Position numbers and translations under genes: made by a program
Part shown: positions 12,978-43,027 of the stretch, one piece after another
Numbering within the stretch: position 1 is the first letter of the stretch
Layout: each line of letters starts with the position of its first letter
Notes under the pieces: generated by a model
The model's input: the letters and a program-made list of their open reading frames with translations, nothing else
The model's database searches: none
Told to the model about the DNA's origin: nothing
Origin: Bacteroidetes bacterium GWF2_40_14
Lineage (GTDB): Bacteria > Bacteroidota > Bacteroidia > Bacteroidales > UBA932
DNA: 64,000 bases
Assembly: GCA_001769195.1 (NCBI GenBank)
Contig: MEOK01000001.1
Span: 169,853-233,852, forward strand
Direction of reading: 5' to 3'

Positions 12978-14231
12978 ATGAACAATAATCTGAAAGTCGT
13001 AATCTTCTCATCTTCCTTACATGATTCATCAACTCTTCTTGATACCAGAGTTGAGTTATTCAATGAATTAAGATCTGAATATGAAGTCGAACTAATTGAC
13101 AGTTCACAAGTTGTAAGCTCTTTAGCAGGAGAAGACCTGGTTATCGCATTTATTGCGACAGGTGGAACAGAAGAGAAGTTTGCCGGAAAATACCAATTGC
13201 TCTCTAATCCTGTCGTTATCCTCAGCGATTCTTATCACAACTCACTTGCAGCCTCATTGGAAATCTCTTCATGGCTTAGTAATAAAGAGGTTAAACACAA
13301 ACATTTAAACTTTCCGCTTTCACCATCGAGAAGATTCTGCGAAGATTTTAAACAGGAGGTATCTGCATTAATGCAAATCCAGTTGGCTCGTTATAAATTG
13401 TCTAAAGCTGTTGTTGGTCTTATTGGCGGTGAATCGTCGTGGTTAATCTCCTCCAAAGTGAATCTCAATTTTGTGTCAGAAAAATTTGAGACAAAATTTC
13501 TCCCCATAAATATTTCCGAACTGGAGGAATTATATAAAAATGAGGATGTTTCATTCAGTATTAATGAACCATTGATTCAGGAGATGACAGATAAAAGGGA
13601 TGGTGACAGATCTCAAAAAGACATTACTGATGCAATTAAAATGTATCTGGCTTTGAATAAACTAATTGATGTTCACAATTTGAGTGCTCTTACAATAAAG
13701 TGTTTCGACTTGTTATCATCTTGCAGGACAACATCATGCCTGGCTTTATCATTGTTGAACGATAGAGGAATTGTAGCTGGTTGTGAGGGTGATATTCCCT
13801 CTTTATGGTCAATGTTGATTGCTGACGCGCTTTGCGGGACTGCATCGTTTATGGCAAACCCATCATCAATAGAGGTTGATGAAAAAAGTGTCGACTTTGC
13901 TCATTGCACAGCTCCCGTAAGTTTGTCAAAGAGCTATACCCTTCCTTCTCATTATGAATCAAAGATTGGAATTGGTATTGCTGCACAACTACCTCTTGGA
14001 AAGTATACTATTTTTAAATGCAGTGGGGAAAACCTGGATAGATACTACGCATATGAGGGAGAAATTGTCCAGAATACAAGTGTAGTTGAACGATGCAGGA
14101 CGCAGGTTAAATTTATTTTCAAGTCCGCTCTTGATTTAGATGAATTTCTTAACAGTCATTCAGGAAATCACGCTATAATTCTACCAGGAAAGCATAAAAA
14201 AATATTGAGTGAATTTTTTAATCTTAATTGA
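12978..14231 (+). CDS. L-fucose/L-arabinose isomerase-like protein
   Basis: ALTIKCF...CLALSLLND.GIVAGCEGD and FAHCT motifs, C-terminal GNH; TACCTTTG element at 12947-12954. Confidence 0.65.
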   Translation: MNNNLKVVIFSSSLHDSSTLLDTRVELFNELRSEYEVELIDSSQVVSSLAGEDLVIAFIATGGTEEKFAGKYQLLSNPVVILSDSYHNSLAASLEISSWLSNKEVKHKHLNFPLSPSRRFCEDFKQEVSALMQIQLARYKLSKAVVGLIGGESSWLISSKVNLNFVSEKFETKFLPINISELEELYKNEDVSFSINEPLIQEMTDKRDGDRSQKDITDAIKMYLALNKLIDVHNLSALTIKCFDLLSSCRTTSCLALSLLNDRGIVAGCEGDIPSLWSMLIADALCGTASFMANPSSIEVDEKSVDFAHCTAPVSLSKSYTLPSHYESKIGIGIAAQLPLGKYTIFKCSGENLDRYYAYEGEIVQNTSVVERCRTQVKFIFKSALDLDEFLNSHSGNHAIILPGKHKKILSEFFNLN

Positions 14232-23089: not shown

Positions 23090-23120
23090 AGGCGCTTCAA
23101 TCTGAGGCGCCTTTTTTCTT
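23090..23120 (+). terminator. Intrinsic terminator overlapping the 3' end of the convergent MBL gene
   Basis: AGGCGCTTCA-atc-TGAGGCGCCT stem followed by a T tract. Confidence 0.8.
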
Positions 23121-23921
23121 ATTATCACTAATAGAACAATGGAACATGCTTCTCCTTGGCAGGCAGCATAATCTGAGTTTATCTCCTGCCGTAATCCCTA
23201 TTTCCGATAAGGAATCAAATGCTGCTTTATATGCAAGGTCAGGAGTATTGTTATTTTCACTCAAATGACACAAAAACAGCGATCTCAGGTCGGGATGATA
23301 AATCTCTTTCAATGCTTTTGCTGTTTCATTGTTGCAAAGATGTCCCTTTCCATTGCTGATTCTTTCAATTAGAACCTTTGGATAACTGCCACCAACAAGC
23401 ATATCATAATCATAATTTGATTCCAGTATCAAATGGTTGGCTCTCTTTGCATAACTGATTATTTCATCAGTGATCTTTCCAGCATCGGTAATAAGAGTGA
23501 ATTTTTCCCCAAAAAAATCAATATGAAAGCCAATAGTATCAGTAGCGTCATGTGAAATTTCAAAAGGAGTTATTTTGACCCCTTTATATTCATACTCCTG
23601 GTCTTTTACAATAATCCTGCGGCAATCAATCAATGTCCCCCTGGTGCAAGGGTGGTACAAAAGAGAATTATGGAGTTCTTCAGTTGCCCAGACAGGAATC
23701 CGGTAACGATCTGAAAATGAACCCAGATGTTTTACATGATCAATATGGTCATGTGTAACGAGTATCAGGTCAATAAGCCCAATCGGAATATTACATTCAG
23801 CGAGTCTCTTCTTTATTGTTCTTACTCCTACTCCCACATCAATCAAAATAGAAACATCTTCATTACCAATATAGTAACAATTTCCATTACTTCCGCTTGA
23901 TAAGCTTATAAAGTTTATCAT
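23097..23921 (-). CDS. MBL-fold metallo-hydrolase (YycJ/WalJ-like)
   Basis: SGSNGNCY, THDHIDH (HxHxDH), SHDA, TDAG, LESNYD, GHLCN and CHLSENNN motifs. Confidence 0.9.
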   Translation of the reverse strand: MINFISLSSGSNGNCYYIGNEDVSILIDVGVGVRTIKKRLAECNIPIGLIDLILVTHDHIDHVKHLGSFSDRYRIPVWATEELHNSLLYHPCTRGTLIDCRRIIVKDQEYEYKGVKITPFEISHDATDTIGFHIDFFGEKFTLITDAGKITDEIISYAKRANHLILESNYDYDMLVGGSYPKVLIERISNGKGHLCNNETAKALKEIYHPDLRSLFLCHLSENNNTPDLAYKAAFDSLSEIGITAGDKLRLCCLPRRSMFHCSISDNKKKGASD

Positions 23922-24536: not shown

Positions 24537-25583
24537 TTAAAAGTTATATGGGTATTTATAAATACCTTTTTCTGTAATTATACCGGTAATATTCTCTGAC
24601 CGTGTAATGTCAAATGCTGGATTATATACCTTAACTCCTCTTGGAGCCACACTGGATTTAAACATCAGATCTGTCACTTCATATGAAGGTCTCTCCTCTA
24701 TAATAATGTCGTCACCACATATGCAATTATCATCTATCGAAGAAGATGGTCCTAAAATATAGAATGGTATTCCCATATTTTTCGCTATAACGGCAAGGCC
24801 TGCTGTGCCAATCTTGTTGGCTACATCGCCATTTTTTGCTATCCTGTCACATCCTGTGAATACTATATCTATCCAGCCCTTGTCCATAACAGAATATGCC
24901 ATGTTGTCGCAAATTAAGGTTACATCAATACCATATTTCATCAGTTCGAATGCAGTCAGCCTTGAACCCTGCAATAAAGGTCTTGTTTCGTCAGCATAGA
25001 CTCGTATGTTATATCCGGCATCCTTTGCAAGATAAACAGGCCCTAATGCTGTTCCTAGTCTGGATACAGCAAGATGGCCTGCATTGCAGTGTGTAAGAAC
25101 TCCCATACCTGGTTTCAAAAGTGTCAGACCATACTCCGAGATGGATCCGCACATCTCTACATCCTCTGCCTTTATAGCATTAGCCTCCTCAAACATACAT
25201 TTTAATAACTCATCTGTTGTCCTATCTGGAAACTCCAATAACGATAATACCTTTTTTTTCATCCTCATCAGTGCCCATGAAAGATTTACAGCAGTGGGTC
25301 TGGATGAATTTAGTCTTGATATCACCTCCAGTGTTCTTGTTTTAAAACTATTTACATTCAATGACTTCTCTCTGTTCATAATAACACAGAGTCCAAATGC
25401 TGCAGCTATTCCAATTGCCGGTGCACCTCTTACTTTAAGAGTATATATCGCATCAAAAATTTCATTCTCTTCATTTAATTGAAGAAACACTTCTTTTGCC
25501 GGAAGTTGAGTTTGATCTAAAATGACCAGTAGAGAATTGTCCGAGGAGATATCGACCGAATCGTATGGAAATGACAATTCCAT
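24537..25583 (-). CDS. mtnA: S-methyl-5-thioribose-1-phosphate / 5-deoxyribose-1-phosphate isomerase
   Basis: ILDQTQLP, VRGAPAIG, SRPTAVNL, THCNAG, DETRPLLQGSRLT and GCDRIAKNGDVANKIGT motifs. Confidence 0.95.
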   Translation of the reverse strand: MELSFPYDSVDISSDNSLLVILDQTQLPAKEVFLQLNEENEIFDAIYTLKVRGAPAIGIAAAFGLCVIMNREKSLNVNSFKTRTLEVISRLNSSRPTAVNLSWALMRMKKKVLSLLEFPDRTTDELLKCMFEEANAIKAEDVEMCGSISEYGLTLLKPGMGVLTHCNAGHLAVSRLGTALGPVYLAKDAGYNIRVYADETRPLLQGSRLTAFELMKYGIDVTLICDNMAYSVMDKGWIDIVFTGCDRIAKNGDVANKIGTAGLAVIAKNMGIPFYILGPSSSIDDNCICGDDIIIEERPSYEVTDLMFKSSVAPRGVKVYNPAFDITRSENITGIITEKGIYKYPYNF

Positions 25584-26239
25584 TACTTAAAAAATCTTTT
25601 TTTGAGTTCGAGTAGTTGAGTAAGTTGTTTGTAGGAAAATTGTCTGGGAACAGCTTTTCTTGAATCAATCAGGTGTGATATTTTGCAGTGAGTTTCAACA
25701 ATTTCTGTCCTCCAGTATGCATCTCTTATACTTTCACCCCATGTAAGAAGACCATGATTTTGAAGTACGAGAACATTTTTCCCTCTTGAAAGAGTCTCTA
25801 CCTGTGATGCCAATTCATCTGAACCAGGGAGTGAATATGGCGCAAATATCATATCACCAATCCAAATAATTGCCTCAGGGCTTAAAAGTTGTGTAGGAAA
25901 ATGATCTGTATAGGCATATGAGCATGTGTAAGGCGGATGTGAATGTATTACTGACTGTGCCGATGGATTAGCCTTGTATACAGAAAGATGGGAAGATATT
26001 TCTGAAGTAACAATATTCTCTCCATAAAGCTGGACCCCGTTTTTGTCAATAATTGTAAGATCGTCAACTGTCAATCCTTTTTTTGAGTATAATGTTGGAG
26101 TAGCAACTATCAGAAATTCAGAGATCTTTAGCGTAACATTCCCCCCGTTTCCTTCAACAAAAGCTTTTTGCCATAGAAGATCTGAGTAGTAACATACACT
26201 CTCAGCTTCCGGATAATATTTTTTTGGTATTGGAGGCAT
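25583..26239 (-). CDS. Class II aldolase/adducin family protein (Ald2/DrdA/FucA-like)
   Basis: GNGGNVT, ATPT, TSE...H, HSH and QNHG Zn ligands. Confidence 0.88.
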   Translation of the reverse strand: MPPIPKKYYPEAESVCYYSDLLWQKAFVEGNGGNVTLKISEFLIVATPTLYSKKGLTVDDLTIIDKNGVQLYGENIVTSEISSHLSVYKANPSAQSVIHSHPPYTCSYAYTDHFPTQLLSPEAIIWIGDMIFAPYSLPGSDELASQVETLSRGKNVLVLQNHGLLTWGESIRDAYWRTEIVETHCKISHLIDSRKAVPRQFSYKQLTQLLELKKRFFK

Positions 26240-26253
26240 AATTCTGATATTAA

Positions 26254-27075
26254 TTATAAATTAGTGACCAAGTTAATAAATAATTGCGACATTTTTTCTG
26301 CAGCCTTGTTTGCAGCATCAATAACATCGTTTCCATCATTGACAAAGTCTTCTGCAAAGGAAAATGCCTCGTTGGTAATGACAGATACTCCAAAAACCGG
26401 AATATTTGAGTGTCTTGCAACAATAACTTCCGGTACAGTTGACATACCAACAGCGTCCGCTCCTATTTTTGAAAAGAATCCATACTCTGCCGGTGTCTCA
26501 TAAGTTGGACCTGTACCAGCGAGATAAACACCCTTTTGCAAACTTATCTGAAGTTTAAGGGCAATTCCCTCAGCTTTTTTTATTAAACCAAGGTCATAAG
26601 GTCTTGTCATATCCGGGAACCTCGGACCAAAATCATCAAGATTTTTCCCAATTAGTGGATTAGGCATTAAATTAATGTGGTCCCTGATTATCATAAGGTC
26701 TCCTACTCTGAATGAAGGATTTACTCCACCAGCAGCATTTGAGACAAAAATATAGCTGACCCCGAGTTGCTTCATTACTCTGATTGGCAATGTTACCTGG
26801 TCCATACCATAACCCTCATAATAATGAAACCTACCTTGCATAGCCACAACAAACTTGCCTCCTATCTCTCCAGCGATAAGATTTCCTTTATGACCAATGG
26901 CTGTTGACTGTGAAAAATGGGGAATAGTTGAATAAGGGATAACAATTTTATTATCAATCTTTTCTGCAAGATCTCCAAGTCCACTGCCCAATACAATCCC
27001 TACAAATGGTATCTTTCCCGAAATTCTTTTTTTTATAAACTCAGTAGCTGAATTTATTTTTTCTACGTATTCCAT
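26254..27075 (-). CDS. Purine nucleoside phosphorylase (trimeric, inosine/guanosine type)
   Basis: [29 protein letters not shown] and SVITN (Asn243 equivalent) motifs. Confidence 0.93.
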
Positions 27076-27086
27076 AATTAAAAAAT

Positions 27087-28340
27087 TTATAATAAATCCA
27101 TATACAGTTTATTGGCCATACGAAGAATTTCTTGTTCTCCCTCAATTATTCTGTTTTCCATCAATATCTTACCATCACATATAACGGTATCGACACAAGA
27201 ACTATTGGCAGAATAGATAAGGTTTGCCAGGAAATTTATGTTTGGAGTAAAAGCAACTGAATTTGTGTCTATTATTACCAAATCTGCCAGATAACCCTCT
27301 TCTATGACTCCGCATTTAATTCCAAGTGACTTACCTCCATTAACAGTTGCAAGTGAAATGAGTTCATCAAGAGGCAATTCTCTCGGATCTCCTCTCCACC
27401 CTTTCTGCACCAATGCAGTTGTTTTCATGGTCTCAATCATATCAAGATTATTCGATGATGCACAACCATCTGTCCCCAGAGAAACAGTTAAACCCGCATC
27501 TCTGAACTCGTTATATCTGAATTTATAGCCGGATGCAATTTTCAGGTTAGAATTGATATTGTGAACTATTTTCACGTCTCTTTTTGCAAGTAAGTCAATA
27601 TCTGCATCATCCATCCAAAGGCAATGGGCTGCTATCATTTTTGAGTTAAGCACCCCTAACTGCTCAAGATAATACGTGGAACTAACTCCATGCATTGCTA
27701 ATGACCTATCGTTTTCTCCTTTAGTCTCCGAAAGATGAATATGGACAAGCATATCTCTCTTCTGAGCGAATTCGCTGGCCCACACAATCATATTTCTTGA
27801 AACACTGTATGGTGCATGCAATCCAATTGCAAATTTGTTTCTACTGCTCCATTTACCAGACAGTTCATACATTTTTTCACACTCATACTTGATTTTTTCT
27901 GAATTCGATTCATCAAGAAGATCCAAAATTACATATGGCTGGAAAGATCTCATACCCATCTCGTCAGCAGCTTGTACTGCATATGGAAGACTCCAGTACT
28001 GATCATTAAAACATGTAGTTCCCGATTTTATCATCTCCAGACAGGCAAGTTTTGTTCCCCAATATACCATCTCGTCTGTAAGTTTTCTCTCTGTTGGCCA
28101 TATTTTTGACTCAAGCCATTCCGTAAGCGATAAATCCTCACCAATACCTCTCATCAAAGTCATGGCAGCATGAGTATGCATATTTACCAACCCCGGTATC
28201 ACCGATCGTCCATTTCCATTAATAATTCTATCAGCCTGAAAATCTATATCTTCCGAAATTTTGTCAATAAGATTGTCTTTTATCAGGATGTCTGTTAATT
28301 TGTTATTTAAGACTATATTTTTTATTAATATCGATTTCAT
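27087..28340 (-). CDS. Amidohydrolase, MTA/SAH/5'-deoxyadenosine deaminase-like (MtaD/DadD)
   Basis: [33 protein letters not shown] and [14 protein letters not shown] motifs. Confidence 0.85.
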
Positions 28341-28445
28341 ACATTTTTCTTTAATCTTGTAAAAATAGTTAGATTTTTGTAGTAACTCAAATATTTTTTG
28401 CTAATATTGTTATCAAAACCAATTTAACGCTCTAAAAATATTATT

Positions 28446-28604
28446 ATGAAATACATTTGCGTTGTATGCGACTATATCTATGATCCACAGCTAGGTGATC
28501 CTGATGGAGGAATAGCTCCAGGTACCGAATTCAAAGATATTCCTGATGACTGGGTATGTCCCCTGTGTGGAGTAGGAAAAGAGGATTTTGAGCCACTTCA
28601 ATAA
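28446..28604 (+). CDS. Rubredoxin (52 aa)
   Basis: Not in ORF track. Hand translation: [52 protein letters not shown], with two CxxC motifs and the classic rubredoxin pattern. Confidence 0.97.
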
Positions 28605-28630: not shown

Positions 28631-30268
28631 ATGAGGCTGATCTGGTTAGATATTAATGCCTCTTACTCACACTCTTCGCTGGCTCTTCCGGCACTCCATG
28701 CGCAACTAACAGATTATCAATCAGAAACTTTAGTATGGCATGTTGTATCAGGAACAATTAACAGTGATCCTTCACTATTATTGCTTGAAATATCAGATTT
28801 TAACCCCGATATAATTCTTTCTACTGCATGGCTGTTCAACCATACATTTATCCTTAATTTATTAGGGCGCTATAAAAGGTTGAACCCAAGTGCATCAATA
28901 ATTATTGGAGGGCCAGAATTCTTTGGAGAAAACAAAGGTTATCTGACAACAAACAGATTTATAACTGCCGTTTTCAGAGGAGAGGGTGAAGAGTCCTTTC
29001 CGTTATTGGTTGACACCCATTTTAAACCTTCATTTTGGAACATAATACCAGGGATGTGCTGGATAAATGAGAGTGGGGACTATGTCGATAATGGAGAGGC
29101 GCTAGTTTCTCATTTTTCAATGCTCAAACCTCCTGAAACATCGCGCTTCTTTAGCTGGGGCAAGCATTTCGCTCAAATAGAAACATCAAGGGGTTGCTTT
29201 AACAGCTGTACTTTTTGTGTCAGTGGGGGGAGCAGAAAGGTACAAAATATTACTCCATCTAAAATTCGTGAAAGACTCAATTTTTTCTTTCTCAAAGGGA
29301 TAAAGGAGATAAGGGTATTGGACAGAACATTCAATGCTAACGCTGAAAGAGCGGAAGAACTTCTTGATGTATTCAACGATTTCAAAGGGAAAATGAGATT
29401 CCATCTGGAAATCCACCCTGCACTACTGTCAGAAAATGTCAGAAGAAAACTCGCGATGGTAGAACCAGGATTATTGCACCTGGAGGCAGGACTGCAGAGT
29501 CTGGACAACAACGTTTTGATAGCATGTAAAAGAGCAGGCAGCAGCGAGAAATCTGTTGAAGGAGTGAAATTTCTTGTCTCATTAGATAAATTCGAGCTGC
29601 ATGTCGACCTGATAGCGGGACTACCTTTTTATACTTATGCTGCAATAATTGAAGATGTCAAATTTTTACTAACACTTGGGGTAGAGGAGATTCAGATTGA
29701 GCTACTCAAGCTTCTTCCCGGAACTAAACTTAAAGAAGATGCTTATAAATATGAAATTGTCTACTCTCCCACTCCACCATATGAAGTTCTTAAAACCAGC
29801 ACAATATCTGTTAATGAACTGCATAAAGTAACCATTCTCTCAAAAATGATAGACATTTGGTACAATAACACAATCTGGCGTGATACCTTCAAAAAACTGC
29901 ATCAGGAAAATCCAACATTTTTAGAAGCATTTTTAGATAATGTGTTGACAAATAATTTGCTTTGTAACAGACTTAGTCAGGAAAACAACGGTATATTGCT
30001 TTACGAATTCTGTATAGAATATTATAAAAAAGCAGTTTTTGATGTAGCCTCAGCTTGGGTAATTGCAGGTTTTTCTCTCAAGAAAGGACCGGGTAAATTA
30101 GCAGAACCATGGATCAGAGGTATATCAAAGGAGAATAATCCATTATATAACAAGTCTGAAGAGCCAAATATGTTTAATTATTATTACATTCAAGGAGAAA
30201 ATGAAAAACTTTGGTTTGCTATGGACAAGAAAGACAAAAAGGGCAAACCAGCAAAAATTTATTTATAA
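28631..30268 (+). CDS. B12-binding-domain radical SAM protein
   Basis: N-terminal cobalamin-binding-like region (IIIGGPE, GEGE), ETSRGCFNSCTFC (CxxxCxxC), DRTFN, HVDLIAGLP and PPYEVL motifs. Confidence 0.88.
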   Translation: MRLIWLDINASYSHSSLALPALHAQLTDYQSETLVWHVVSGTINSDPSLLLLEISDFNPDIILSTAWLFNHTFILNLLGRYKRLNPSASIIIGGPEFFGENKGYLTTNRFITAVFRGEGEESFPLLVDTHFKPSFWNIIPGMCWINESGDYVDNGEALVSHFSMLKPPETSRFFSWGKHFAQIETSRGCFNSCTFCVSGGSRKVQNITPSKIRERLNFFFLKGIKEIRVLDRTFNANAERAEELLDVFNDFKGKMRFHLEIHPALLSENVRRKLAMVEPGLLHLEAGLQSLDNNVLIACKRAGSSEKSVEGVKFLVSLDKFELHVDLIAGLPFYTYAAIIEDVKFLLTLGVEEIQIELLKLLPGTKLKEDAYKYEIVYSPTPPYEVLKTSTISVNELHKVTILSKMIDIWYNNTIWRDTFKKLHQENPTFLEAFLDNVLTNNLLCNRLSQENNGILLYEFCIEYYKKAVFDVASAWVIAGFSLKKGPGKLAEPWIRGISKENNPLYNKSEEPNMFNYYYIQGENEKLWFAMDKKDKKGKPAKIYL

Positions 30269-37802: not shown

Positions 37803-38975
37803 TTATTTGAATTTTATAAGCATCAGCACAGGATTGTCATTTTCGTTCATTTGGTCGGTTATCCGTTTTAAGGTATCGGACAGCTTATCATAATTATCTT
37901 TAAGGTTATGATAATATAACCTTTTTGCTAGATAATTTGGATTTAACGTTAGATAAAATCCGAAAATTTTCATATCTTCTGTATAGGATGAACTTGAGTC
38001 ACCTCTAATTTTATAGATGCTATTCTTGGCTTTATCGTACACCAAAAATTTAACATTGCTGAAAACTGATTCTTTGTCGAGTGCAATAGCTGATGTCAAA
38101 AATATATATTTGTCTGTTTCCAGTACTGGAAATATGCACATTTCACCTCTATTCTGATATTTAGTAACATCTACAAATTTTGGAGTAATTTTAAGAGAAT
38201 CATCCATAAAGAAAGTTGTGTCAGATCTGAATGAAAAAAAATAACAACCTTTACTAGTAGTAGTAATGGACATTCCTGAAGTTCCTATTTTGCTAGTATG
38301 TATCCTGGAGAAATTAATATCCGGAACATCAAGCAGCGTCAGGCTATCCTTGTCAATATAACTTAATGATCTTCTTCCAAAATTCATAACCTTATTTCCT
38401 TTGGCTATCCATTCAGGTTGGTAATAAATTGCCTTAGGGTTAAATCCAACCAGAGTTGTATTATTGATATTTTCAATGTTATTAAATGATAAACTCGAAC
38501 CATAATCTTTTTTTGATTTTTTATATTGCCCCTCTAAGCTGAATACATATAATTGTTCTTCCCTGGTACCCCAAATATAGACCTCCTTTTTAATTGTGTC
38601 AACCGAGAAACAAAAAGATCCTGATACCAATTCGCCTGGTCCATTGCCCTTATCACCTATTCTGTATAAAGGTTCTCCTTTAAGACTATATACAACTATT
38701 TTAGGATCAATTGTATTAATATCTCCTAAAAATATTCTGTCGCTTGTTACAAACACTTGTCTTGGAAGCTCGCCAATAATAGTCATTGTATCTTTTCCAA
38801 ATTTTAGCGGGATATATGAGATATCCGCAATATCGCTAAGTCTTAGATCGAGTTCTGGGTAGTTCTTGTTTGCATCAATTTCAATAATTTTATCATGGGG
38901 TTGCGTGCTACATGATAAAATTATGATAAAAATAGCAGTGCTTACAAAAAACCATTGATTTAATTTATTTGTCAT
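37803..38975 (-). CDS. 6-bladed beta-propeller lipoprotein (DUF4934/DUF5128-like)
   Basis: Lipobox (IIILSC); IGDKGNGPGE motif; NENDNPVLMLIKFK C-terminus typical of this family. Confidence 0.7.
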   Translation of the reverse strand: MTNKLNQWFFVSTAIFIIILSCSTQPHDKIIEIDANKNYPELDLRLSDIADISYIPLKFGKDTMTIIGELPRQVFVTSDRIFLGDINTIDPKIVVYSLKGEPLYRIGDKGNGPGELVSGSFCFSVDTIKKEVYIWGTREEQLYVFSLEGQYKKSKKDYGSSLSFNNIENINNTTLVGFNPKAIYYQPEWIAKGNKVMNFGRRSLSYIDKDSLTLLDVPDINFSRIHTSKIGTSGMSITTTSKGCYFFSFRSDTTFFMDDSLKITPKFVDVTKYQNRGEMCIFPVLETDKYIFLTSAIALDKESVFSNVKFLVYDKAKNSIYKIRGDSSSSYTEDMKIFGFYLTLNPNYLAKRLYYHNLKDNYDKLSDTLKRITDQMNENDNPVLMLIKFK

Positions 38976-40150
38976 CTTAATACCTGATTAAAATCATTCT
39001 TTAATATAAAATAGCACAGAATAAGATTGTTTTGTGTCGGATTCTCAGCAAGATAGGGAGGTAAATTAATTCCGGGAAGATTACTATTCATGACTTTGAA
39101 AAGCTTTCTCTCAATAGAATTAATATAAATCAAGTCGTATGCTCCAATACTGAAAACAGTTCCTGGAAGGTACCATTCCATGATGGTGGTATTATATGAC
39201 ACAGTATTATTGTAGACTTCCATTTGGTTATTACATATTGTAAATAACTTGATTGTAATCAGTTTCTCCTTATGTTTAAATTCGTGATTCCATCTTACAA
39301 GCCATTTATCTTCTGAAAGCTGCCATAAACCGGTAAGAGCCATTTGACCTGCTTTTGATTTGACCTTCTTTTTAATGAGTTTTGGTCTGTTGGCCTTATC
39401 GATATTCACTAAAATAACAGAATCCTTCGTGTCGAACTTATATCTGTATACAATGTCCTCGAAAAGATACTTTACCAAAACCCCACTGTCACTTTTAGTT
39501 ATAATATTAACAGGTGCTATCTTGGAAAGAATTGTATCATATAGCTCTTTATCGGGAGTAAAGCTTTTTTTAGAAGGATAATCAATTTGTTTCACGTTCC
39601 CTTCTCTAAGGTCTGCTACAAACGTAACTGGAACCGGTAGACTGCAAGTTGTAAGAAGAAGATGAGTTTTATCAAGAAACACTAACTTATCGTACTTATA
39701 TGCAGGATCTAATTTTATTTCATCGATTTGTTTTCCAAGAGTATCCTGACTTATGATTTTTGTGGATTTTGCTTCAAGGGCATATACTATCTTACTATCC
39801 CTATCTATATCAAACGAAATGAAATCATAATTGGCGTCTTGTGTTTGAAAGGTAACATCCAGTAACCCGGTAATTAAATTATATCTCCTTATTTTGTTTT
39901 TAACGAGAATGTATACTTCATTCTCTATACTGATAATCTGTTTTACATCATTTTGGGAGAAACTGTCGGTTTTTTCTAGAAAAACAGCTTTATATTCTTT
40001 AAAGTATTCATTATAACGGTCTTCTAACGATACAATTTTATCTTTGTTAAATTTTTGCAGATCTATGACTTTTAGGTTTTTCTTGTCGTCTGAACAATTA
40101 TACAGAATAATTATCGATAGCAGCGAAAGGATGATTCCCAATTTTCTCAT
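38972..40150 (-). CDS. Divergent beta-propeller-type lipoprotein
   Basis: Lipobox (ILYNCSDD); blade-like beta repeats; 4-nt overlaps with both neighbours; lacks the GxGPGE motif. Confidence 0.5.
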   Translation of the reverse strand: MRKLGIILSLLSIIILYNCSDDKKNLKVIDLQKFNKDKIVSLEDRYNEYFKEYKAVFLEKTDSFSQNDVKQIISIENEVYILVKNKIRRYNLITGLLDVTFQTQDANYDFISFDIDRDSKIVYALEAKSTKIISQDTLGKQIDEIKLDPAYKYDKLVFLDKTHLLLTTCSLPVPVTFVADLREGNVKQIDYPSKKSFTPDKELYDTILSKIAPVNIITKSDSGVLVKYLFEDIVYRYKFDTKDSVILVNIDKANRPKLIKKKVKSKAGQMALTGLWQLSEDKWLVRWNHEFKHKEKLITIKLFTICNNQMEVYNNTVSYNTTIMEWYLPGTVFSIGAYDLIYINSIERKLFKVMNSNLPGINLPPYLAENPTQNNLILCYFILKNDFNQVLR

Positions 40151-41226
40151 TTCATTCTAAATTTAATAATTAGTGGATTTTTGTCACTTTCTGTCTGACC
40201 TTTGATCACCAGTATATCTTTGGTAGAAGACCCTTGAAAAACTAAGTCCCGACTGCCTAAAGTTAGAAGACTATCTTTTTTATCTTTAATCTTTACATTC
40301 TGATTGTAGCTGCCGGATTCAATATTGTACAGTGATAAAAATGAATTTCTAACTTTTTCCTGAGCATTATTGACTTGGTAAAAAAAGAAAATGAAGTCTC
40401 CCCCCTGCACTATATTGCGCATATAGAGTTTATTTCCTTCTAATGCCTGCATATTTTCCATAGAAAGCTCTTCAAAATTTAATGTCATTTTATTTGTCTG
40501 GATCAGAAATTCAGGGTTAAGCTTTTTGTTTCGCAGACGGAATAATGTGTCATTAAAGTAATTATAAATGTATGGATTCTGTCTGTCCCCGAAAATAAAG
40601 ACATTCCCAATTATTAGCTCACCTGGTTGCATTTCTCTGTCAATTTTTGAAAGTAAAACCGGGTTGTCTAAAGAATAATTGTATAAGAACAAATCCATTC
40701 CGGATGAGTTATTGGAAGTATAAAACAACAACGAATCTCTATATGGAAAAAATGATTTAAGGTATAAAAGAGTATCTTTAAAATCAGGTTTAAACGAAGA
40801 GAGAAAATTACCCTCTCTATCATATTTCAAAAGTTTCTGGCTGGGAAAATCAAATAGATTCACACTACTGTCTTTTTCATTGACAAAGATTTTTTTAACA
40901 AACAAGAATTCTCCAGGACCTCTGCCTTGAGTTCCTATTTGACGGACAAATTTTCCTGTTTTCTCATATTCATAAACATTTTTTTCGTCGGAAACAATGT
41001 AGTATGATTGATAAGATTCATAAAGATCAGAAATTACACCGATAATTGGAGCCTTTTCAGAATTATCCAGCTCAATGACTTCTGTGCTGCTTACTATGGA
41101 ATCAAGGGGAATTGTGATACAGTCTGCTTTCTTTGACAAATCGTGCAGTGTAATTACTTTCAGGTTTTCATTCCTGGAACAAGATGCCAATATAAGTATA
41201 GAGAATACTAATAGTAATTTTTTCAT
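40147..41226 (-). CDS. 6-bladed beta-propeller lipoprotein (DUF4934/DUF5128-like)
   Basis: Lipobox (LILASC); GKFVRQIGTQGRGPGEF motif; KNPLIIKFRMK C-terminus; TAGTTTTG on the minus strand at 41261-41268. Confidence 0.75.
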   Translation of the reverse strand: MKKLLLVFSILILASCSRNENLKVITLHDLSKKADCITIPLDSIVSSTEVIELDNSEKAPIIGVISDLYESYQSYYIVSDEKNVYEYEKTGKFVRQIGTQGRGPGEFLFVKKIFVNEKDSSVNLFDFPSQKLLKYDREGNFLSSFKPDFKDTLLYLKSFFPYRDSLLFYTSNNSSGMDLFLYNYSLDNPVLLSKIDREMQPGELIIGNVFIFGDRQNPYIYNYFNDTLFRLRNKKLNPEFLIQTNKMTLNFEELSMENMQALEGNKLYMRNIVQGGDFIFFFYQVNNAQEKVRNSFLSLYNIESGSYNQNVKIKDKKDSLLTLGSRDLVFQGSSTKDILVIKGQTESDKNPLIIKFRMK

Positions 41227-41293
41227 ATATATACTTTTATTAAGATTCTGAAAATCAATCCAAAACTAATAAAAAATATACAAATAAAAAATA

Positions 41294-43027
41294 TTATCTG
41301 TCTTTAAATAGCAGGTTGTAGTCTCTTACTGCAGCCCTCTTTACGAATTTTTCAGGGACAAACTTCCATTGATTGAGTTTGGTTGCTTTGATTGTTCCGT
41401 TTTGCTTCAGTTTGTCGTATATCAATCCTCTGATATCGGTAGAACGGCTTATGACCCTTCCATCCAGTTCACTTCTTGGAATCTTTGCTCCTTGCTCCAG
41501 TATATCGCCTCCTCCGTTGGCCCTGTATGATGAGAGTGCCACCTTGTATTTTGATTCGGGATTAAACTCCATACCGTTGGACATCGATTTAATCGTAATC
41601 CTCTCTCCGTCTTCCTTTTGAACATCAACCTCGTATATTATACCTGCGGCAGAATCGAAATTGAAATTCATGTTTTTAAACCTGTACCGGCCGTCATCAC
41701 CACGAATTTCTATGTTCAACAAATGGTCGTCAGCGCTTTTCATCTGATTTATCCATTTTGAATATGAATACTCCAGATAATCTTTTATCTCCTTGCCGGT
41801 CATCTCAATAACATACAATTGATTCTCGAAAGGGTAAAGGTTGAGCAGATCCTGGTAGTTCAATTCTCCGGCAGGTATGGTAATATCAAGAGAAAGTGGG
41901 GCTGCAAATGAGATATCGGCATTTGATTTTTCAAGCTGTATTGTATGTATCATATCTATATACTCAGATGACCCGAAATAGGAATCGCGTGATGTAACAG
42001 TATTTTCAAGCCTTCCAACAACAGTAATTGTAAATTTCTTGACAGCAAAGAATTCTTTATGAAACTTATTAGTATACTCTATATCTGCAGCAACACCCTT
42101 CATCGGAATTGTCTGCGGCTCGTATCTCTTTGAGACAACCTTGCCATCTTCAACTTTAAGATTCACTTTAACGAACGAAAGAGATGATGCCCTGCTGCCA
42201 CCCTCTAATACCAGAACACTGTCTTGTCCATTCTTGACAAACTCTGCAACTGTTTTATGATCATGTGCAGCCATTACAATATCGATTCCCTTGACATTTT
42301 TTGCTACATACCTTGCCGGGTCTTCCATCTGGTAACTGTTCTCATCTCCCAGCCCAGCATGCAAAGCAGCAATAATCAAATGGGGCTTCTCTTTTCTTTG
42401 AATATTCACTACAAGATTATCCACCAAAGGGATTATCTCTTCAAATCGCATTCCGCTCCATAACTGCTGAGATAGCCATTTGCTGATATTAGGATTTGTC
42501 ATTCCTATAACTGCAATTTTAATCCCCTGCCTTACTATTATTGTATATGGTTCGAAATATGGTTTACCGGTTTTTACATCTGTCGCATTAGCTGCAAGAT
42601 ATGGTGGATTGAGCTCTTTTACTATTTTGTCGTAAACAGGATGCCCTGCCTCAATATCATGATTTCCAACTACAACAGCATCATATTTAAGATAATTTGC
42701 CACTTTGCTGAAAATATGCTCACTTTTTGTATCAACATAGTTGTAGTAAAACACAGAATTGTCTCCTTGAAGGTGGTCCCCGATATCGAGAAGTACTACT
42801 GAGCCCTCTCCTGCCCTCTCACGTGCCCCATTTATGTACGTTGATACAGACGAAAGAGAGAATGCATGAGTTGTAGTATCTGTATATAATGAATCAAAAA
42901 TACGCCCATGCAGGTCGTTTGTGGCATATATCTCTATTGAGTAGGTTCCATCTTTTATCTTTTCACCCGTGCATCCGGTAAGTGAAACAAAAAGAATTAT
43001 TATTATATGAAAGAAATATCGTCTCAT
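41294..43027 (-). CDS. Bifunctional metallophosphatase/5'-nucleotidase (CpdB/UshA-like) lipoprotein
   Basis: TNDLHG, DIGDHLQG, VGNHD and AHDH motifs; 5'-nucleotidase C-terminal domain (LYPFENQL, YRANGGG). Confidence 0.9.
   Translation of the reverse strand: MRRYFFHIIIILFVSLTGCTGEKIKDGTYSIEIYATNDLHGRIFDSLYTDTTTHAFSLSSVSTYINGARERAGEGSVVLLDIGDHLQGDNSVFYYNYVDTKSEHIFSKVANYLKYDAVVVGNHDIEAGHPVYDKIVKELNPPYLAANATDVKTGKPYFEPYTIIVRQGIKIAVIGMTNPNISKWLSQQLWSGMRFEEIIPLVDNLVVNIQRKEKPHLIIAALHAGLGDENSYQMEDPARYVAKNVKGIDIVMAAHDHKTVAEFVKNGQDSVLVLEGGSRASSLSFVKVNLKVEDGKVVSKRYEPQTIPMKGVAADIEYTNKFHKEFFAVKKFTITVVGRLENTVTSRDSYFGSSEYIDMIHTIQLEKSNADISFAAPLSLDITIPAGELNYQDLLNLYPFENQLYVIEMTGKEIKDYLEYSYSKWINQMKSADDHLLNIEIRGDDGRYRFKNMNFNFDSAAGIIYEVDVQKEDGERITIKSMSNGMEFNPESKYKVALSSYRANGGGDILEQGAKIPRSELDGRVISRSTDIRGLIYDKLKQNGTIKATKLNQWKFVPEKFVKRAAVRDYNLLFKDR

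Follow-up and report, generated by a model that had tools for sequence, protein, structure and literature searches.

The chemistry of the dihydroxyacetone phosphate (DHAP) shunt and of the Drd pathway is established (PMC6079011, PMC13474568), and a 2026 review recognizes only two characterized entries into the shunt, via MtnP or via MtnN plus MtnK (PMC13474568). Deaminating routes are known from Methanocaldococcus jannaschii, where the deaminase DadD is followed by a methylthioinosine (MTI) phosphorylase and a 5-methylthioribose-1-phosphate (MTR-1-P) isomerase (PMC6302742, PMC6079011), and from Pseudomonas aeruginosa, which has both a 5'-methylthioadenosine (MTA) deaminase and an MTI phosphorylase (PMC6302742). 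Here we analyse an operon in a 64,000-nucleotide (nt) stretch of DNA (contig MEOK01000001.1, positions 169,853 to 233,852; hereafter the window) from Bacteroidetes bacterium GWF2_40_14, an uncultured groundwater Bacteroidales. On balance, the enzyme families encoded there suggest a deaminase-first entry into a DHAP-shunt-like salvage of 5'-deoxy-nucleosides derived from S-adenosylmethionine (SAM). Among these nucleosides is 5'-deoxyadenosine (5'-dA), an inhibitor of radical-SAM enzymes; anaerobes with many enzymes of this class need to clear it.

Four minus-strand genes at 24537-28340 encode a deaminase, a purine nucleoside phosphorylase (PNP), a class II aldolase-family protein and MtnA, with 11 nt between deaminase and PNP genes, 14 nt between PNP and aldolase genes and a 1-nt overlap of aldolase gene and mtnA. 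The list of open reading frames (ORFs) agrees exactly with an earlier sequence-only reading of this DNA on the position and spacing of the four genes, but that reading overlooked two more: the co-oriented run extends past 24537 into genes for a HAD-IA hydrolase (7-nt gap) and an MBL-fold protein (4-nt overlap). So tight an arrangement, in which three gaps measure 11, 14 and 7 nt and two junctions overlap by 1 and 4 nt, supports a shared pathway. The run consists of the following genes.

28340..27087, minus strand: MtaD/DadD-group amidohydrolase, predicted deaminase, 417 amino acids (aa), first gene of the operon
27075..26254, minus strand: trimeric-type 6-oxopurine PNP, 273 aa
26239..25583, minus strand: class II aldolase-family protein, 'PE-type' (defined below), 218 aa
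25583..24537, minus strand: MtnA isomerase, 348 aa
24529..23918, minus strand: HAD-IA hydrolase, 7 nt downstream of mtnA
23921..23097, minus strand: MBL-fold metallo-hydrolase, last gene of the run (Pfam Lactamase_B_2, 6e-18)

In the proposed route, the amidohydrolase would turn 5'-dA, and probably MTA and adenosine as well, into the matching inosine derivative; the PNP would phosphorolyse 5'-deoxyinosine or MTI to hypoxanthine and 5-deoxyribose-1-phosphate (5dR-1-P) or MTR-1-P; MtnA would isomerize these to 5-deoxyribulose-1-phosphate (5dRu-1-P) or methylthioribulose-1-phosphate (MTRu-1-P); and the aldolase would split the ketose phosphates into DHAP plus acetaldehyde or methylthioacetaldehyde. 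All of these substrates and products are predictions from what is observed at the locus and elsewhere, namely gene order, families, key residues, conservation and recurrence of the module. The deaminase-first order is supported by the family and motifs of the deaminase, by the type of the PNP and by an isomerase of the MtnA and not of the ribose-1,5-bisphosphate (R15P) isomerase type.

The back end of this route resembles the DHAP shunt and the Drd pathway (PMC6079011, PMC10986504, PMC12632272). As in the DHAP shunt of Rhodospirillum rubrum and extraintestinal pathogenic Escherichia coli, MtnA would be followed by an adjacently encoded class II aldolase-family enzyme with the same predicted products and no MtnC, MtnD or MtnE nearby, but the entry here is a deaminase plus a 6-oxopurine PNP in place of MtnP or MtnN/MtnK. 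The Drd pathway of Bacillus thuringiensis (DrdK-DrdI-DrdA) likewise salvages 5dR-1-P by means of an MtnA paralogue together with a class II aldolase, but includes a kinase that has no counterpart in the operon. As for the front end, M. jannaschii also deaminates 5'-dA/MTA, phosphorolyses the inosine derivative and isomerizes the sugar-1-phosphate; its phosphorylase, however, is of the MTA phosphorylase (MTAP) family, its genes are not described as a single operon and the proposed fate of the sugar is 6-deoxy-5-ketofructose-1-phosphate for aromatic amino acids, not DHAP by aldol cleavage. Deamination before phosphorolysis is also found in P. aeruginosa (PA3170 deaminase and PA3004 MTI phosphorylase), but its phosphorylase is an MTAP homologue and its downstream steps are those of aerobic methionine salvage, with no aldolase.

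That the locus combines the two strategies had been inferred in the sequence-only reading. Our literature search, outside which a key 2020 survey lies, found no account of a deaminase-initiated DHAP shunt or of this Bacteroidales cluster, but to speak of combining both overstates the novelty in view of the M. jannaschii precedent (PMC6302742). If the proposal is correct, the operon would constitute a third DHAP-shunt entry, beside the phosphorylase and the nucleosidase-plus-kinase routes, rather than a new kind of system; it would connect the deaminating front end known from archaea and Pseudomonas with bacterial aldol cleavage, and would explain how MtnA is fed where the sole purine nucleoside phosphorylase is 6-oxopurine-specific. 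We would call the advance moderate, the chemistry being predictable from known modules and the additions being a third entry, a portable module and a large aldolase clade.

The deaminase belongs to Pfam Amidohydro_1 (4e-67), and its closest solved relative is the MTA/S-adenosylhomocysteine (SAH) deaminase 4f0r (4e-67), in alignment with which the HxH, HxxE, AAH and GTDG metal/catalytic motifs are all kept. Its best NCBIfam matches lie in the archaeal and bacterial MtaD/DadD group, with archaeal models scoring highest; the top models are PRK06038 (422 bits, cut-off 609), PRK08393 and PRK09045 (331 bits), and it scores 288 on PRK07228, '5'-deoxyadenosine deaminase' (cut-off 522), and 234 on PRK15493, 'MTA/SAH deaminase' (cut-off 779). 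Its predicted substrates are 5'-dA, MTA, SAH and adenosine.

The phosphorylase (Pfam PNP_UDP_1) exceeds the cut-off of TIGR01700 for inosine/guanosine-specific PNPs (362.6 bits, cut-off 293.35) and fails both the MTAP model TIGR01694 (75.8, cut-off 274.85) and the MTI phosphorylase model NF006599 (48.1, cut-off 223). In human PNP, Asn243 gives 6-oxopurine specificity and the substitution N243D shifts the enzyme toward adenosine. We aligned human PNP (the sequence of PDB 1pf7, identical over 289 residues), the window PNP and seven relatives, and found the Asn of the motif 'SVITN', residue 235 of the window protein, to align with Asn243 and to be invariant in all nine, bearing out what had been noticed from the sequence alone; the equivalents of human Glu201, His86, Tyr88, Arg84 and Met219 are invariant as well. 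Because it has Asn at the specificity position, the window PNP should not accept adenine nucleosides. This position varies inside the trimeric PNP subfamily and is therefore informative: PDB 8swt, a solved bacterial trimeric PNP that is 53% similar, has Asp ('SVVTD') at the Asn243 position and retains the equivalent of human His257. In the human enzyme His257 touches the 5'-hydroxyl; it is replaced by Gly in all the Bacteroidales PNPs aligned, by Glu in the PNP of Ponticoccus and by Ala in that of Brevibacillus; an enzyme without this residue could tolerate 5'-deoxy or 5'-methylthio groups. The predicted reaction is the phosphorolysis of 5'-deoxyinosine or methylthioinosine to hypoxanthine and a sugar 1-phosphate.

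The isomerase (Pfam IF-2B) passes both MtnA models, TIGR00512 (390.4, cut-off 279) and NF004326 (408.9, cut-off 271), and is 49% identical to DrdI of B. thuringiensis and 57% identical to MtnA of Parabacteroides distasonis; MTR-1-P and 5dR-1-P are its predicted substrates. A ribose shunt would use the same genes differently, taking adenosine or inosine through ribose-1-phosphate and ribulose-1-phosphate to DHAP plus glycolaldehyde; the isomerization would be carried out directly by the MtnA-type enzyme or pass through a bisphosphate that the HAD protein dephosphorylates. The PNP as a general inosine/guanosine enzyme would suit such a route, and, kinase excepted, the families match those of the haloarchaeal non-carboxylating pentose bisphosphate pathway, where a nucleoside phosphorylase, an eIF-2B-family isomerase, a HAD phosphatase and a class II aldolase yield DHAP and a C2 aldehyde (PMC9700705). 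That pathway, however, needs a ribose-1-phosphate kinase and a true R15P isomerase, whereas the operon has no such kinase and its isomerase fails the R15P isomerase model TIGR00511 (176.1, cut-off 314.1); the window aldolase scores 56.7 on the haloarchaeal ribulose-1-phosphate aldolase model (cut-off 300), and the HAD protein is widely conserved in Bacteroidales and missing from some copies of the unit. We consider the ribose shunt improbable, and equally so the kinase-free bacterial route from ordinary purine nucleosides that it would amount to, bypassing phosphopentomutase and the pentose phosphate pathway; if true, it would be a shortened analogue of the haloarchaeal pathway and would give the aldolase clade described below its first function.

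The last step of the deaminase-first shunt would fall to the aldolase (Pfam Aldolase_II, PF00596, 2e-36), which lies under the cut-off of all NCBIfam models, scoring 98 on FucA_Meth, 94 on OtnC, 61 on the DrdA-type PRK06833 (cut-off 264), 57.4 on MtnB TIGR03328 (cut-off 137.05, residues 23-104 only) and 52.6 on FucA TIGR01086 (cut-off 400). Among 17 relatives the metal ligands (His99, His101 and His162) do not vary and the base Glu80 hardly does; these residues align with His92, His94, His155 and Glu73 of FucA, and also with DrdA and Ald2. As comparators we used DrdA of B. thuringiensis (drdK-drdI-drdA cluster), MtnB of Bacillus velezensis (full methionine-salvage cluster), the aldolase of a Caballeronia mtnK-mtnA-aldolase cluster and Ald2 of E. 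coli ATCC 25922, located via yjhU, so that all statements on Ald2 concern this E. coli protein, the DHAP-shunt enzyme used experimentally, and not Ald2 of R. rubrum. FucA and three of these comparators (DrdA, E. coli Ald2 and the Caballeronia aldolase) share the motif 'xYMIA' with Tyr113; at this position the window protein has Glu122, within 'LSPE122AIIWIG'. In BLASTP the window aldolase reached 57 bits to DrdA, 61 to E. coli Ald2, 47 to the Caballeronia protein and 32 to B. velezensis MtnB, compared with 86-113 bits to proteins with a Pro/Ala-Glu motif. It differs from DrdA, which passes PRK06833 with 411 bits, and shows no family-level kinship to the FucA-like Ald2.

An exhaustive profile search returned 1,309 representative clusters at E <= 1e-30, and most of the single-domain matches carry the motif '..LPE.EVF.G..APY.TPG(S/T)', from which we term the clade 'PE-type'. 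Many PE-type matches are ~425 aa long with two tandem aldolase-II domains and others have N- or C-terminal extensions; their source labels are generic ('class II aldolase/adducin' or 'L-fuculose-phosphate aldolase'). In a neighbour-joining tree (rough, without bootstrap), PE-type proteins split both from the FucA/DrdA/Ald2 group and from MtnB, and the MtnA-linked protein of Brevibacillus is closest to the fucose-operon protein of Staphylococcus casei. A phylogeny of the aldolase against Ald2/DrdA, MtnB and FucA had been named beforehand as a check; in this tree it groups with none of them. Judged by sequence, the window aldolase lies outside the Ald2, DrdA, FucA and MtnB families, in a separate uncharacterised clade, and 5dRu-1-P and MTRu-1-P are its predicted substrates.

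The residue that separates the window aldolase from the Tyr113 enzymes brings it nearer to MtnB, which also has Glu at the site aligned with Glu122 (its catalytic Glu, in 'QEMIK'). An MtnB-like dehydratase would form, with the HAD protein and perhaps the MBL protein, an oxygen-independent branch resembling methionine salvage; the HAD gene does lie directly after mtnA, and MtnB and aldolase activities can overlap (PMC8102628). However, the aldolase has neither the Lys of the MtnB motif nor its PII(E/D)N loop, and PE-type proteins retain the FucA-like 'APY..PG(S/T)' loop ('APY..PGS' in the window protein) without the MtnB 'PIIDN' insertion. The MtnB model covers only part of the protein at less than half of its cut-off, and the BLASTP score to true MtnB (32 bits) is well below those to PE-type proteins (100-113 bits). 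An AlphaFold model (pLDDT 82.8) has its best fold matches in YgbL/OtnC, FucA and DrdA (TM 0.79-0.88), although pLDDT falls to 52-67 around Glu122, so that the model does not settle the active-site geometry. The HAD protein has no MtnC or MtnX match, and both it and the MBL protein have orthologues in unrelated contexts.

Genomic context also bears on this choice. PE-type proteins occupy the aldolase slot of a fucose operon in Staphylococcus casei (fucI, FGGY kinase, major facilitator superfamily transporter, PE-type aldolase, FucU), of a Rhodobacter FGGY-kinase/DeoR/aldolase/short-chain dehydrogenase cluster and of a metagenomic FGGY-aldolase pair, and aldol cleavage is therefore favoured over dehydration of the MtnB type. 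MtnA clusters with a PE-type member but no HAD gene occur too. PE-type proteins lie beside MtnA, along with nucleoside phosphorylases or transporters, in Brevibacillus laterosporus (PunA-type PNP, NupC, DeoR, MtnA, aldolase), in a metagenome-assembled genome (MAG) of Ruminococcaceae (ABC permeases, two DeoD-type phosphorylases, MtnA, aldolase), in Pusillibacter faecalis and in a Bacillota MAG. No MtnC, MtnD or MtnW was found in these four clusters. Taken together with the features of the protein, these contexts make the dehydratase improbable. By context, the PE-type clade would consist of ketose-1-phosphate aldolases repeatedly recruited to MtnA, independently of Ald2/DrdA, which makes it a target for biochemistry and for correcting annotations as 'L-fuculose-phosphate aldolase'.

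In Pusillibacter faecalis (NZ_AP023421.1, loci L095/L097) the cluster comprises, in this order, the PE-type aldolase, DeoR, Cupin_5 (DUF985), a short-chain dehydrogenase, MtnA, a BMP binding protein, DeoD, three ABC transporter genes and an amidohydrolase that resembles 8-oxoguanine deaminase, not MtaD. On a plasmid of Ruegeria sp. THAF33 (L106, 4980-8189), mtnA is immediately followed by a gene for a 678-aa 'bifunctional aldolase/short-chain dehydrogenase', which may represent a version of the shunt with fused aldolase and aldehyde reductase.

The pairing of deaminase and PNP recurs outside this lineage. In Parabacteroides distasonis the two genes (50% and 63% identical, respectively, at the protein level) lie side by side, separated by 11 nt, and no related gene follows them, while mtnA lies elsewhere in the genome, away from the pair; Monoglobus and a plasmid of Priestia also have the two genes next to each other. 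The best matches in the plasmid collection included no close PE-type aldolase from P. distasonis. That the pair stands by itself in P. distasonis implies that it is older than its union with mtnA and the aldolase and that its role is wider than the shunt. In the P. distasonis mtnA region (L090, 7072-8981), a 285-aa predicted lipoprotein is encoded 14 nt upstream of mtnA; we dropped it as a candidate partner enzyme, as it has no Pfam domain and carries a lipoprotein-like signal sequence with Cys.

These solo pairs raise the possibility that the window operon unites two unrelated modules on one transcript, a deaminase-PNP pair for general purine salvage and an MtnA/aldolase pair fed by MtnN plus MtnK or by MTAP encoded elsewhere. 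The window PNP is very near an ordinary bacterial PNP, its nearest structure being 4ns1 (2e-114), and with the HAD and MBL genes the transcript would already carry housekeeping genes. Even so, 5'-deoxyinosine or MTI handled by the pair would still give exactly the substrates of MtnA, and neither the 64-kb window nor the neighbourhood tables showed a gene for MtnK, MtnN or MtnP. Moreover, on plasmid NZ_CP047170.1 of Ponticoccus alexandrii (Rhodobacterales; 124000-138000, L099), a PNP with the Asn kept, an MtaD-type amidohydrolase and MtnA are encoded in one overlapping run, which continues with a molybdopterin oxidoreductase, a split transketolase and a RuBisCO-like protein (RLP), opposite a BMP-family (nucleoside-type) ABC transporter. 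The Ponticoccus trio unites a deaminase, a 6-oxopurine PNP and MtnA independently and in front of another back end, and is the best comparative support for the pair feeding MtnA; we therefore judge the two-module explanation unlikely, though less so than either of the alternatives considered above. We have not seen the combination of a deaminating front end with an RLP/transketolase back end described in the literature searched. Adjacency of mtnA and a deaminase gene is also present in P. aeruginosa records. The deaminase-PNP(-MtnA) module is portable, with an aldolase back end in Bacteroidales and an RLP/transketolase/molybdoenzyme back end in Ponticoccus.

Within the lineage we surveyed one genome per GTDB species, running tblastn with all six proteins at the loci found. 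The nearest relative of the window is a complete metagenome-derived chromosome of 3.53 Mb (OW818649.1, GCA_942492945.1) with the same gene order and an aldolase 95% identical. The window's own aldolase clade is present at 21 loci (L010-L030; 42-95% identity), all in uncultured Bacteroidales/Bacteroidetes MAGs, below which aldolase identity is <=33%. The order deaminase-PNP-aldolase-MtnA-HAD-MBL is kept in nearly all of these loci, and synteny, named in the sequence-only reading as a check, thus resolves into a six-gene unit shared by ~21 species, all within a single uncultured lineage of Bacteroidales. The deaminase of L024 is only 43% identical. The absence of mtnC, mtnD and mtnE held up: the Pfam gene tables for the equivalent neighbourhood of the closest genome contain no acireductone dioxygenase/cupin and no aminotransferase, and by NCBIfam the HAD protein is not MtnC or MtnX. 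The flanking genes for ADP-forming acetyl-CoA synthetase, radical-SAM protein, M3 peptidase and phosphoenolpyruvate carboxykinase also keep the same order in the lineage.

Several observations weigh against a deaminase-first shunt, in addition to the Glu shared with MtnB and the low confidence of the model around it. Since the whole neighbourhood is syntenic in a single lineage, conservation of gene order is weak evidence of functional coupling, and at locus L018 the deaminase, PNP, aldolase, HAD and MBL genes are present and mtnA is missing. The deaminase lies under the cut-off of every NCBIfam equivalog, and the deaminase-PNP pair may serve general adenosine/purine salvage, its link to MtnA being partly positional. 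The sequencing runs in which the sequence occurs are all DNA metagenomes (groundwater, sediment and soil), with no RNA among them. The proposed order of deaminase, PNP, MtnA and aldolase stands in part: none of the tests made here contradicted it, and families, conservation and the Ponticoccus trio speak for it, whereas the solo pair in P. distasonis and the position of the aldolase outside known families limit it.

The last two genes of the run most probably have housekeeping functions and share its transcript, as far as family matches and orthologue contexts indicate. The HAD protein (Pfam Hydrolase/HAD_2) has its best NCBIfam match in YihX glucose-1-phosphatase (71.6 bits, cut-off 295), and MtnC and MtnX models are not among its 12 NCBIfam matches at E <= 1e-3. 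To YihX it is only distantly related, but it is close to two solved HAD proteins of unknown function, PDB 4dcc (4e-47) and 2i6x (4e-42), which we take to be from Bacteroides thetaiotaomicron and Porphyromonas gingivalis, respectively. The protein is widely conserved in Bacteroidales, L024 and L028 have the unit without its gene, and it is probably a housekeeping sugar-phosphate or nucleotide phosphatase. The MBL protein is probably a passenger; its orthologues in P. distasonis, Bacteroides and Prevotella (37-44% identical) are found in unrelated contexts, beside an asparaginase or a BamA gene. Both were considered as pathway enzymes, the HAD protein as MtnC/MtnX, and both were set aside, having no model match and orthologues in unrelated contexts. 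In Synechococcus excess 5dR-1-P is reported to be dephosphorylated (PMC8102628), and by analogy a role of the HAD protein as an overflow phosphatase, for example on excess 5dR-1-P, is possible but unsupported.

The surroundings of the run contain the following features.

28341..28445: AT-rich intergenic region, 105 nt, common to the operon and the divergent rubredoxin/radical-SAM genes
28446..28604, plus strand: rubredoxin, 52 aa, divergent from the operon
28631..30268, plus strand: B12-binding radical-SAM/DUF4080 protein, divergent, 3' of the rubredoxin gene
23090..23112: GC-rich hairpin with T-run, terminator-like, closing the run where the MBL and M3-peptidase genes converge

The 105-nt spacer is the sole room for an operon promoter. 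Inspection of the leader by eye revealed no convincing Bacteroidetes-type promoter motif, an Rfam scan of the window and the leader region detected no riboswitch or other RNA family, and scans for sigma-70 promoters and terminators gave counts at the level of shuffled sequence. The hairpin at 23090-23112 has a 10-bp stem with 6 GC pairs, which is weak evidence of a terminator, such sites overall not exceeding shuffled sequence. The B12-binding radical-SAM/DUF4080 enzyme would itself yield 5'-dA and SAH, which does not imply membership in the unit. The adjacency of the rubredoxin and radical-SAM genes to the operon is kept across the lineage, but it says little because the entire neighbourhood is equally kept.

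The G+C content of the operon (0.37) matches the remainder of the window. A stretch of lower G+C (0.32-0.34 compared with ~0.38 elsewhere) lies at 37803-43027 on the minus strand, where three tandem ORFs of ~360-390 aa stand beside a UshA-like 5'-nucleotidase gene; two encode a DUF5128 six-bladed beta-propeller and one has no Pfam match. A 417-aa ORF at 12978-14231 on the plus strand, between cation-efflux and M28 peptidase genes, likewise has no Pfam match.

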